Positions 3,126 to 56,896 of a stretch of 64,000 nt of DNA are shown piece after piece (the stretch's first letter is position 1; each line of letters starts with the position of its first letter). A program made the translations under genes and the position numbers. The DNA is from Myxococcales bacterium. Lineage in GTDB: Bacteria; Myxococcota_A; Polyangia; Palsa-1104; SHYY01. Below the pieces are notes generated by a model. The model was not told the origin of the DNA. It searched no databases and saw only the letters and a program-made list of their open reading frames with translations. The DNA lies in NCBI GenBank assembly GCA_009692555.1, contig SHYY01000007.1, positions 3,259 to 67,258 of the forward strand. Reading direction: 5' to 3'.

Positions 3126-3172
3126 TCCGTTGCCGTCCAGTGCCGTTGCCGTTGCCGTTGCCGTTGCCGTCG
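3126..3172. repeat. Intergenic hexamer microsatellite (TGCCGT)n
   Basis: Tandem tgccgt units are read directly in the sequence. Confidence 0.9.
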
Positions 3173-5766: not shown

Positions 5767-5800
5767 GCCGCCCGCCGGCGCCCGCCCTGCCGGCGGCGAG

Positions 5801-5952
5801 TTGCCGTTGCCGTCGCCGTCGCCGTCGCCGTACCGTCGCCGTCGCCGTCGCCGTACCGTCGCCGTACCGTCGCCCTTGCCGTTCCCGTTTCCGTTGTCGC
5901 CGTTGCCGTTCCCGAACCGTTCCCGTTGCGGTTGCGTCTCGGTTTCCGTGCC
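5801..5952. repeat. Degenerate hexamer repeat tract (CCGTYG/CCGTTC/CCGTAC)
   Basis: About 150 bp of imperfect ccgtcg/ccgttg/ccgttc units lie between the TA promoter and the downstream gene stop. Confidence 0.85.
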
Positions 5953-24375: not shown

Positions 24376-24496
24376 GCGGTTCCCAATTGTAGGGAGAATC
24401 GTTCCCGGTCGGGTTGTCTCCCTTTCCCGCTGGCGCCGCTGGCGGGAGAGGGAGACGATCCCGGGCCCACCGCCTGTCCCTACAACCGGGAACCGC
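24376..24496. repeat. REP/REPIN-like nested hairpin element
   Basis: Outer arms GCGGTTCCCAATTGTAGGGA / TCCCTACAACCGGGAACCGC; inner arms GTCTCCCTTTCCCGC / GCGGGAGAGGGAGAC. Confidence 0.75.
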
Positions 24497-49527: not shown

Positions 49528-49560
49528 GCGCAACGGGAACGGGAACGGCAACGGCGGCAA
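49528..49560. repeat. Short hexamer repeat (AACGGG/AACGGC)n
   Basis: gcaacgggaacgggaacggcaacggcggcaa. Confidence 0.75.
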
Positions 49561-54759: not shown

Positions 54760-55134
54760 ATGAGCAAGAACTTTTGGTTCAGCGCGTTCATGGCCGTGAG
54801 CACCGTCGCTGAGGCGGGCGGGGCGCCGGTGGAGGCGAGCTTCGTCAAGGTCGACGCCGACCGCGAGGTGCTGGTCTACAAGGTGAAGATCAACACCGAC
54901 AAGCCGCTCAAGCAGGTCGACATGAAGTTCCACTACCTCGACGCGGACGGCAAGGAGCTCTCGGCGGCGCCCTTCTCCTGGCAGAACAACATCAAGGGGA
55001 AGATCGAGCCGATCCAGAAGGGCAGGAGCTACGAGAATGCCGACCCGACGCTGCCGGAGCACACCGCGAAGTGCACGATCGATATCACGATGATCCACTT
55101 CGTCGATGGCTCGAAGTGGACCCCCGGCAAGTGA
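54760..55134 (+). CDS. Small hypothetical protein (Ig-like beta-sandwich appearance)
   Basis: Strong coding-type codon bias and a C-terminal IHFVDGSKW motif. Confidence 0.65.
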   Translation: MSKNFWFSAFMAVSTVAEAGGAPVEASFVKVDADREVLVYKVKINTDKPLKQVDMKFHYLDADGKELSAAPFSWQNNIKGKIEPIQKGRSYENADPTLPEHTAKCTIDITMIHFVDGSKWTPGK

Positions 55135-56885
55135 TCTGACCGGGCCCCGCCGCGTGGCCGCTTCCGCCAAGGCAGTCCACGCGGCGCTCGCGGCGTGGCG
55201 CCGGGCGCTCGGCACCGAGAATGTGCTCACCGACGGTGACGTCCTCGGGCGCGCCGCCACCGCGACCTTTCCCACCACCCAGAAGGTCATCGCCATCCTC
55301 CGGCCGGCGCGCCGCGAGGAGGTGCAGCAGTGCCTCCGGATCGCGCAGCGCCACGGCACGCCGGTCTATCCGGTGAGCGGAGGGCGCAACTGGGGCTACG
55401 GCTCGCGCGTCCCGCCCGAAGGCGGCTGCGCGATCCTCGACCTGGCGCGCCTCGACGGGATCCGCGACTTCGATGAGCGGCTCGGCCATGTCACCGTCGA
55501 GCCGGGGGTCACCTTCGGGAAGCTGTTCGCGTTCCTGCAGGCGCGGACGGCGCGGCTGTTCCTGAGCGTGCCGGGGAGCGGCCCCGAGGCGAGCGTGATC
55601 GGCAACGCCGTCGAGCGCGGCGACGCCACCGGGCCGCAGGGCGATCGCTTCGCCCATGTGTGCGGCCTGGAGGTGGTGCTGCCGACGGGGGAGCTGGTGC
55701 ACACCGGGTTCGCGCGCTTCGACGGGGCGCGCGCGGCCCGGGTGGCGCGCTGGGGCGTCGGGCCGTCGCTGGACGGGTTGTTCTCGCAATCGAACCTCGG
55801 CGTGGTCACGGCGATGACGGTCTGGCTCACGCCGCGGCCGGGCCACTTCGAGCTGGCCTTTCTGGCGATCACCGACGGGGAGAAGCTGCCCGCGCTCGTG
55901 GATGCATTGCAGCAATTGCGGATGGAGGGAACGATCCGCGGCACGTTTGCGCTGTGGAACGACTACAAGGCGCTGTCGCTTTGCGGAGGCTACCCGTGGG
56001 AGGCGGCGGGGGGAGTGACGCCGCTCCCCGAGGCGCTGCTCGAACGGACGCGGGCGGAGACCGGGTTCGGACGCTGGAACGGGACGATCGGGCTGTACGC
56101 CGCCAGCCGTGCCCAGGGGCTCGCGGACCGGGCGCGCGTCGAGGAGGTGCTCCTTTCGCGCGTGGATGTTCTGGCCTGGGATGACCGGGCGCCGGGAGTG
56201 GCGTGGGAGGATCTCGACGCGAGGGGGCCGGGGCTCGGGGTGCCGCACGAGCGCAGCGTGGCGGGGATGTACTGGCGGAAGCGCCAGGGGGCGACGGCGA
56301 CGGAACCGGCGACGGCGACGCTAACTTCCTTTACCGCGTCAGCGGAGTTGTCTCGGCGGGAGCCGAGGGCGACGGAAACGGAAACGGAAACGGCGACGGC
56401 GCGTGGGACCCTCACCCCGACCCTCTCCCGCACGCGGGAGAGGGAGACGGAGGGGGCGATCGATCCCGAGCGGGATGGTTGTGGCTACTTGTGGTGTACG
56501 CCCGCCGTGCCGTTTGTTGGCGGCGAGGTCGATTCGGTGCTGGCGCTGTGCGAGGAGGCGATCGGTGGGGCGGGCTTCGAGCCGCAGATTGCGGTCGTGT
56601 TCGCCAGCGAGCGCCTGGCCCTGGTGTGCGCGGCGATCGTCTGGGACCGTGCGGCCGAAGGCGACGATGCGCGGGCGATGGCCTGCCACGACGCGCTGCT
56701 CGCGCGCCTGATCGGCGGCGGCTACCTCCCCTTCCGGCTGGGCGTGCAGTCGATGGCCGCGCTGCCCGCCGGCAGCGACGACACCGCGGAATTGCTGCGT
56801 CGCATCAAAGCCCTCCTCGACCCGCGGGGCATCCTGGCGCCGGGGCGGTACGCTCCGTCCCCTGTGATAGAGTCCCCGCGCGACC

Positions 56886-56896
<11 letters not shown>
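55106..56896 (+). CDS. FAD-linked oxidase, vanillyl-alcohol oxidase/p-cresol methylhydroxylase family, carrying a 55-aa in-frame insertion
   Basis: YPVSGGRNWGYGS, VEPGVTF, SVIGNAVERG, CGLEVVLPTGE, GLFSQSNLGVVT and LDPRGILAPGRY. Confidence 0.9.
56286..56459. mobile_element. 165-bp in-frame insertion (hexamer repeats plus REP-like hairpin) bounded by 9-bp direct repeats
   Basis: AGGGGGCGA at 56286-56294 and 56451-56459; stem CCCTCTCCCGC-AC-GCGGGAGAGGG at 56421-56444. Confidence 0.75.

Follow-up and report, generated by a model that had tools for sequence, protein, structure and literature searches.

The question raised by this locus is whether a block of repeated DNA in the middle of an enzyme gene is a genuine insertion and, if so, of what origin and with what consequence for the protein. 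The gene, assigned to the flavin adenine dinucleotide (FAD)-linked oxidoreductases of the vanillyl-alcohol oxidase/p-cresol methylhydroxylase (VAO/PCMH) type, is located in a stretch of 64,000 nucleotides, called the window below, from contig SHYY01000007.1 of a Myxococcales bacterium (GCA_009692555.1). The source genome (G000) is a metagenome-assembled genome (MAG) of 6.1 Mb in 283 contigs, with a completeness of 80%; the relatives compared with it include one genome of the same genus (G001) and two of the same family (G002 and G003). An earlier note, made from the letters of the window alone, had proposed a selfish repeat analogous to the Rickettsia palindromic elements (RPEs), either adding a peptide loop to the enzyme or removed from the DNA or from the RNA. 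The explanation that best accounts for the whole of the evidence, to which a probability of about 0.78 is given here, is a recent in-frame mosaic of three repeats, retained as a floppy loop in the protein and spread in a way that was likely transposase-independent.

An in-frame insertion in an oxidase gene

The components of the locus, in window coordinates, are:

55106–56896, + strand: host gene, VAO/PCMH-type FAD-linked oxidoreductase of 596 aa, with an open reading frame (ORF) intact across the insert
56286–56294, + strand: left copy of the 9-bp direct repeat AGGGGGCGA, whose last 5 nt open the hexamer tract
56290–56319, + strand: hexanucleotide tract 1, GGCGAC GGCGAC GGAACC GGCGAC GGCGAC, translated as (A)TATEPATAT
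56320–56367, + strand: core A, 48 bp, GCTAACTTCCTTTACCGCGTCAGCGGAGTTGTCTCGGCGGGAGCCGAG, translated as LTSFTASAELSRREPR
56368–56397, + strand: hexanucleotide tract 2, GGCGAC, three times GGAAAC, GGCGAC, translated as ATETETETAT
56407–56449, + strand: module C, CCCTCACCC-CGA-CCCTCTCCC-GCACGC-GGGAGAGGG plus AGACG, translated as (G)TLTPTLSRTRERET
56421–56431 and 56434–56444: perfect 11-bp hairpin of module C, with a 2-nt loop
56451–56459, + strand: right copy of AGGGGGCGA, followed by host ATC GAT CCC (I-D-P)
56294–56452, + strand: disordered loop of the AlphaFold2 model, residues 397–449

Pfam, PDB and Foldseek agree in placing the host in the VAO/PCMH flavoprotein family, as the earlier note had supposed, with a cap domain predicted to have the PCMH fold. 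Pfam recognises FAD_binding_4 (PF01565, 1.7e-25) and FAD-oxidase_C and nothing else; the sequence matches in PDB are p-cresol methylhydroxylase, vanillyl-alcohol oxidases and dehydrogenases, and eugenol oxidase (1e-59 to 1e-66), and the top Foldseek match of the AlphaFold model is 1DII_A (template modelling score 0.88, E 4e-40).

The oxidase was compared with its relatives at the protein level, at 47–60% identity. Its 2561 homologues are mostly 500–550 aa long, and alignment with 15 of them reveals a single clean gap of 52 columns (55 had been expected), located between YWRKRx and xxDPxRDxCG; no orthologue carries a loop of similar length. The loop from Y[WY]R[KR] to D.CG..W measures 10–13 aa in 91 of the 92 motif-matching homologues among the 120 best, and 64 aa only in the oxidase. 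The size of the gene points the same way: 80 orthologous loci from named genomes (Polyangiaceae, Archangium, Enhygromyxa, Bryobacterales, cyanobacteria and others) span about 1.43–1.67 kb, and the present gene 1.79 kb. The stretch keeps the frame of the ORF, and its translation is the one given earlier. The GC content at third codon positions (GC3) is 0.84–0.90 on both sides of the insert, which is of coding type, and downstream of it the oxidase keeps its residue at every column that is invariant in the 15 aligned homologues (P454, D457, C459, G460, W463 and others up to R581). On these comparisons, the stretch of 156–165 bp is best taken as a real and recent in-frame insertion of 52–55 codons into a short conserved loop, about three codons of which it may also have replaced. 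An oxidase orthologue was not found in the G001, G002 and G003 genomes searched, and a 28-mer of the left junction of the insert had no match in a metagenome scan.

Composition of the insert

The two copies of AGGGGGCGA lie at 56286 and 56451, 165 bp apart, exactly where the earlier note had put them, and the ACGGCG/ACGGAA hexamers (GGNRAC in the register used here) and the perfect hairpin between them are equally borne out. The order of the insert is (GGNRAC)5, core A, (GGNRAC)5 and module C. Its DNA gives 57 BLAST matches in its own genome, and the repeat-derived sequence runs from 56290 to about 56450: repeat coverage rises from 5 to 38 at 56290 and falls from 41 through 19 to 5 across 56449–56455. 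Along the insert, the coverage separates three independent modules, namely core A, the GGNRAC hexamers and module C. Core A and module C seldom co-occur, and the insert is thus a mosaic, formed from two independent repeat families and a hexanucleotide microsatellite. The complete composite has no second copy in G000; the closest arrangement, on contig C135, has its parts 1 kb apart. All blocks are multiples of 3 bp (the hexamers, the 48-bp core and the C segment, of 54 bp here), and the peptide segments encoded include LTSFTASAELSR and GTLTPTLSR. Neither an inverted-repeat search nor folding found an inverted repeat linking both ends of the insert or of core A.

Core A and the hexamer tracts

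Core A is present in G000 in 54 copies at up to three mismatches, 16 of which are identical over the 47-mer searched; a looser count gives 60 copies at 48 loci, eight of them tandem arrays with a spacing that is always a multiple of 6. At the same threshold of three mismatches it is absent from 40 relatives, the same-genus genome included. Nor does it occur in 400 genomes of the class (162 genera); BLAST gave no match for it in plasmids or phages, and a 34-mer of it was not matched exactly by any JGI metagenome contig. Such a distribution points to a young, species-specific family. Core A is not palindromic, since folding gives two separate hairpins of 4 and 6 bp, and it has no terminal inverted repeats.

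The GGNRAC hexamers adjoin core A on both sides in exact register. The ends of the core, GCTAAC and GCCGAG, resemble hexamer units, and A always takes the place of a whole number of units. Tracts of at least three units number 288 in G000 and 87 in a reversed-genome control, the longest having 32 units; among 200 tracts of at least four units, only 18 are intragenic. By eye, the hexamer-flanked copies of A, mostly with 0–1 mismatch, look younger than the hexamer-less ones.

Parts of the insert had been reported from between the genes of the window, and these are indeed found, as hexamers at about 3145, 5800–5913 and 49535, and as a related hairpin at about 24400–24450. The hexamers form tracts without core A at 3145–3168, 5800–5913 (broken by GGTAC units) and 49535–49552. 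Elsewhere in the genome, very long in-frame tracts are located in ORFs with coding-looking flanks: (VPVA)n over 32 units (C247:21809-22000), (PF)15 (C268:22096-22185) and (GN)15 (C128:13572-13661). Copies of core A at C135:8827-9040 (three in tandem) and C167:14505-14590 occupy the first 20–70 codons after an apparent ATG (MSGAPDDDLDGDGDGDGNGNFLHRVSG...), and are either N-terminal extensions or elements of the 5' untranslated region.

Module C belongs to a known triplex-motif family

Module C occurs in about 35 copies in G000, with the consensus ACCCTCACCCCGACCCTCTCCCGC-NN-GCGGGAGAGGGAGACGATCC; its reverse strand reads CCCTCTCCC-GCGTGC-GGGAGAGGG-TCG-GGGTGAGGG-T. The reverse strand of 56409–56444 fits exactly the pattern CCCTCNCCC-N3-6-GGGNGAGGG-N3-GGGNGAGGG of TMECO, with loops of 6 and 3 nt, and over 42 nt the module has 88% identity with a motif carried by 4871 of the 5426 complete E. 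coli genomes. Folded as a duplex only, its hairpin has an energy of -12.2 kcal/mol (z = -3.4). By its sequence, module C can be assigned to the TMECO triplex-motif family.

TMECO is a G/C-rich intrastrand triplex motif described in 3610 copies from 262 proteobacterial genomes (Holder et al. 2015, NAR 43:10126, PMC4666352) and tied to local genomic instability (Holder et al. 2015, PMC4666352). In E. coli K-12 it is always intergenic, and it is never found with mobility genes (PMC4666352). The names Myxococcus and Sorangium are not in the text of that paper (PMC4666352). Module C shares with TMECO a patchy spread among relatives (no copy in the same genus, five in G020 and one in G028) and the lack of a nearby mobility gene. 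The difference is that, in contrast to the intergenic copies of E. coli K-12, at least 6 of the approximately 35 copies described here are translated inside genes, and that the host is a myxobacterium.

Two further observations relate to the surroundings of module C. At 24400–24470 of the window, a hairpin akin to its right arm (TCTCCCTTTCCCGC...GCGGGAGAGGGAGACGATCC) is followed by GGGCCCACCGCCTGTCCCTACAAC, a tail that also follows C copies on contigs C123 and C166; this combination suggests a longer composite repeat family. In addition, several C copies (C11:49480, C25:11250, C252:20180, C144:4130) have immediately before them a conserved segment of about 35 nt, CAGCGACGGARGTAGCGAGCCGCTCCATGCGCGCTC, which may be a fourth repeat module.

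Copies inside other genes

A copy was scored as intragenic when a stop-free frame ran through it and both flanks had coding-type GC1, GC2 and GC3. This home-made test is conservative and missed at least one true case, a topoisomerase gene. It returned 20 of the 48 loci of core A, and with the topoisomerase, added by inspection, at least 21 of 48. Together with the module C copies mentioned above, the repeats are in frame inside at least 25 genes besides the oxidase. The other intragenic copies that the earlier note looked for thus exist, in unrelated genes. The hosts, in which Pfam domains lie on both sides of or around a copy of A, or between or around whose domains module C is located, are:

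Core A: two E2 acyltransferases (lipoyl, E3-binding and catalytic domains)
Core A: PurL, an ABC-F ATPase, the HrpB helicase, an SNF2-like helicase, a ROK kinase
Core A: an FAD monooxygenase, an epimerase-cupin protein, a DUF4139 protein, an FHA protein, a KAP NTPase, the topoisomerase
Core A: a Ser/Thr kinase (C113:105372-105418), in which a diverged copy, IGARRYNSAYAAKEVS, is located between the HRDLNP catalytic loop and the DFG motif
Module C: MurG (between its two GT28 domains), the MutL linker, the PolA linker, E2 (twice) and the oxidase

In the kinase, the insertion is located in the catalytic core, and the Pfam Pkinase match runs across it. Core A is stop-free in three of the six frames, and all three are used: (i) the frame LTSFTASAELSRREPR in the oxidase, HrpB, the DUF4139 protein and others; (ii) the frame ANFLYRVSGVVSAGAE, with (GN)n arms, in PurL, ABC-F and SNF2, with the segment (GN)n-ANFLYR in PurL and ABC-F; (iii) the reverse-strand frame LGSRRDNSADAVKEVS, with (VP/VS)n arms, in E2, the kinase, the ROK protein and others. 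Module C is translated in its hosts as RLPLPLAGEGRGEG or TLTPTLSRTRERE. The use of three frames and both orientations shows that the spreading unit is the DNA, and not a peptide or an RNA.

The same sites in the relatives show the elements to be lineage-specific arrivals, mostly in variable linkers. The PurL of G002 has no insert, and that of G001 has, at the same spot, hexamers and a different small palindrome without core A; it follows that hexamer tracts can precede the core, and the site looks like a recurrent landing place. The loop of the G001 PurL (C512:5400-5750) contains the perfect palindrome AAATCGTGCCAGGTGGCACGATTT, which has three loci in G001 and none in G000; with three loci only, it was rejected as a large family. 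MutL lacks module C in G001, G002 and G003. In G001 its linker (C432:7334-8056) carries, instead of the module, a long (Ala-Ser)n / (Ser-Thr)n dipeptide repeat, which points to a different microsatellite colonising the same linker. The E2 proteins of G001 and G003 have ordinary Pro/Ala linkers, most of which has been replaced in G000 by a block of core A plus hexamers. Literature searches found no description of in-frame repeats or hexanucleotide-armed elements in myxobacteria.

Consequence for the enzyme

The AlphaFold2 model of the oxidase has a mean predicted local distance difference test score (pLDDT) of 72.8. Residues 397–449 fall below 50 and have no secondary structure; this disordered segment is located between a helix (383–389) and a strand (459–469), its flanks are well folded, and elsewhere the model agrees with PCMH. 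The enzyme is probably still able to fold, now with a floppy loop of about 52 residues. Flavin is attached covalently through Tyr384 in PchF and through His422 in VAO. When the insert is deleted in silico, position 387 of the PchF chain pairs with R456, in a part where the alignment is approximate; on the same approximate alignment, the equivalent of PchF Tyr384 would fall in a conserved segment, D-P-x-R, that contains no Tyr in this subfamily. This would put the insert approximately 2–3 residues ahead of the site corresponding to the covalent-FAD Tyr384 region of PchF, which in PCMH we take to be near the flavin edge and the cytochrome-binding face, again approximately. The intact reading frame and the model are most consistent with a tolerated surface loop; the peptide is presumably translated and retained and the enzyme functional, although it may be impaired.

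Mode of spread and alternative explanations

Both copies of AGGGGGCGA are on the + strand, and the window holds four copies against 1.4 expected. Two 24-nt windows placed 165 bp apart share a string of at least 9 nt in 0.8% of random placements in G000. Five of the nine bases of the left copy (GGCGA) are hexamer-tract sequence. The earlier note had pointed out that removing one repeat with the interior restores a compact motif; this does restore YWRKRQGAIDPERD, but the loop so obtained, after the loss of 55 codons, has 9 aa, which is shorter than the usual 10–13 and one below the shortest homologue. Because excision leaves a loop shorter than that of any homologue, the event was not a simple insertion bounded by a duplicated target. 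Nor do the other copies behave in such a manner. No target duplications were detected at 32 copies of module C, where the longest strings shared by the flanks are distributed as in mismatched flank pairs (the sole exception lies in a hexamer tract), and the hexamer-less copies of A show, by eye, no consistent flanking duplication, only coincidences of 3–6 nt. The 9-bp repeat therefore belongs to this one event, and flanking direct repeats, which the earlier note had suggested looking for at other copies, are not a hallmark of the family. A Y1/RAYT transposase (PF01797) was not found in G000, itself an 80%-complete MAG, while control genomes gave matches. A transposase sought between inverted copies of A on contig C87 was not found there; the genes at this place encode a short-chain-dehydrogenase-like protein (by sequence), an acyltransferase-like membrane protein, and the topoisomerase with its own copy of A. 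A target-duplicating transposase of the cut- or copy-and-paste type is most likely not the means of spread.

The route proposed instead consists of three steps. Copies would pass from one hexamer tract to another by gene conversion or recombination, and would occasionally enter unique sites through microhomology-mediated template switching at hairpin- or triplex-forming DNA. Selection would then keep only the in-frame, stop-free copies in tolerant positions such as linkers and loops, where the survivors would be translated as extra low-complexity, disordered peptide. The 9-bp repeat would represent a junction microhomology or a duplication made in this single event.

The alternative closest to this scheme treats the whole composite of 156 bp as a non-autonomous transposon resembling a MITE (miniature inverted-repeat transposable element), moved by a transposase in trans, with the pair of AGGGGGCGA as a 9-bp target-site duplication. 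A perfect 9-bp repeat exactly at the borders of the repeat-derived DNA, with a chance of about 0.8%, agrees with it, and duplications of 9 bp are made by many DDE transposases. The composite, however, has no terminal inverted repeats and no second copy, its parts on C135 being 1 kb apart; the repeat is confined to this copy, the C copies having no target duplications and the hexamer-less A copies, by eye, no consistent ones; more than half of the repeat (5 of 9 bases) is itself hexamer sequence; excision at the repeat yields a loop below all 91 homologues; and the block in the E2 linker replaced sequence instead of merely adding to it. A MITE-like origin is consequently judged improbable. The possibility that the insertion inactivated the enzyme, and that the gene is a young pseudogene whose frame is open only since the blocks are stop-free multiples of three, takes its strength from the place of the insertion, a loop held to 10–13 aa in homologues and 2–3 residues ahead of the place where the covalent-FAD Tyr384 region of PchF aligns, and from the lack of an orthologue in the same-genus genome and the two same-family genomes searched, by which the gene is dispensable in the lineage. 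The 596-codon ORF is nevertheless intact with a GC3 of 0.84–0.90 on both sides, all invariant downstream columns of the 15 homologues are kept, the AlphaFold2 fold is intact around the loop, and the same modules are tolerated by the essential genes PolA, MurG, PurL and E2; a dead gene is for these reasons a decidedly doubtful reading.

Fragmentation of the MAG (283 contigs, 80% complete) and the abundance of near-identical repeats would allow for an artefact of assembly or binning, in which a short-read assembler threaded a repeat into the gene. Both flanks, though, continue the same gene in the same frame, as they do at more than 25 further loci that differ in host, frame and orientation. A typical read is longer than the blocks, and a mis-join would not keep frame and gene continuity with such regularity. 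An artefact is very improbable on this evidence. Removal of the stretch after transcription or translation, as an intron-like, intein-like or bypassed sequence leaving a compact mature loop, has in its favour only the neat restoration of YWRKRQGAIDPERD once one repeat and the interior are taken out. Rfam found no intron in 56200–56550, only a Pab91 match whose 21.9 bits fall below the threshold of 71, and Pfam found no intein or Hint domain in the host protein, for which 52 aa would be too small. The RNA fold of the whole insert is ordinary (z = -1.3), and the reading of the same DNA in three frames and both orientations elsewhere leaves no common RNA or peptide signal. Nothing indicates removal from the DNA or from the RNA, which the earlier note had allowed for, or from the protein, and this explanation is scarcely credible.

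Several points weigh against a retained mosaic that spread independently of a transposase. The 9-bp flanking repeat is uncommon by chance (0.8%) and consistent with a 9-bp target duplication, and a mobilising enzyme could be encoded in the missing 20% of the genome, which is 80% complete in 283 contigs. The enzyme may be impaired, since the insertion hit no free linker but a conserved loop of constrained length beside the flavin. Finally, recombination and template switching are a putative mechanism.

Relation to known repeats

The comparison with RPEs made in the earlier note holds in part. The repeats are multi-copy and in frame in many genes; they are not one element, and core A is not a palindrome. 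RPE-1 to RPE-10 have been described in Rickettsia (Ogata et al. 2000, summarised in PMC10969869 and PMC3733652). The features in common are: (i) short, dispersed, genome-specific repeats, in frame in unrelated and often essential genes; (ii) an added peptide that is tolerated; (iii) intergenic as well as intragenic copies; (iv) no known associated transposase. However, RPEs are single palindromic units of about 100–150 bp in a reduced intracellular genome, whereas the genome of the present host, a free-living myxobacterium, is at least 6 Mb in size, and the insert is a mosaic in which only module C is a hairpin. Core A differs in being 48 bp long, not palindromic, enclosed in a hexanucleotide microsatellite, often tandem and read in three frames. 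Homology of the modules to RPEs at the sequence level is unlikely, given their GC-richness; as an analogy, the comparison appears largely right.

For several phyla, GTAG- and CGTC-tagged repetitive extragenic palindromic sequences (REPs) have also been reported from within ORFs (Di Nocera et al. 2013, PMC3733652), and two CGTC families are equated with RPE-4 and RPE-6 (PMC3733652). No myxobacterial name searched for appears in that paper (PMC3733652). The likeness lies in small palindromic repeats within ORFs of known proteins, DNA repair genes included. The CGTC-tagged class moreover has no dedicated transposase, and the reverse strand of module C starts with CGTC followed by a palindrome. 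In contrast, the CGTC families have stems of 8–9 bp that start with A/T pairs, and CCA tails (PMC3733652). Module C has instead an 11-bp G/C stem and a third pyrimidine arm.

Dispersed minisatellites such as the mycobacterial interspersed repetitive units (MIRUs) have units of 40–100 bp at many loci, often in short head-to-tail arrays that keep the frame. Core A resembles them as a dispersed unit in short frame-keeping tandem arrays. MIRUs are located between the genes of operons, whereas core A is often intragenic and tied to a hexanucleotide microsatellite.

Significance

In-frame repeats within genes are thus already known, and what stands out here is their density, their youth, the large free-living genome and the presence of TMECO in coding DNA. 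Rickettsia offers the best-documented case of genes colonised by small in-frame repeats, and intragenic REPs are scattered through other bacteria; a similar density is now found in a large myxobacterial genome, with another architecture composed of a microsatellite, a 48-bp core and a triplex motif. A motif held to be strictly intergenic is thereby extended into coding DNA. Core A is young enough for insertions to be caught in populations: of its 54 copies, 16 are identical over the 47-mer searched, and the sister species has none. The hosts amount to natural "loop-insertion mutants" of well-studied enzymes such as PolA, MutL, MurG, PurL, E2, the catalytic core of a kinase and, next to its flavin site, a PCMH-type oxidase. 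In annotation, over-long proteins of myxobacterial MAGs that contain TLTPTLSR, GEGRGEG, (GN)n, (TE)n or (VP)n are explained by such inserts.

A broader and tentative proposal, which we consider rather unlikely as it stands, is that the hexamers, core A and module C together constitute a transposase-independent, "microsatellite-armed" mobile mosaic, in which the arms would provide homology and the hairpin- or triplex-forming cores would stall replication, both together driving templated copying into new sites, linkers and loops of genes among them. If it is true, copying of this type would continually create disordered protein segments in a free-living bacterium, in essential enzymes as well, and microsatellite-armed mosaics may be general in Myxococcota.

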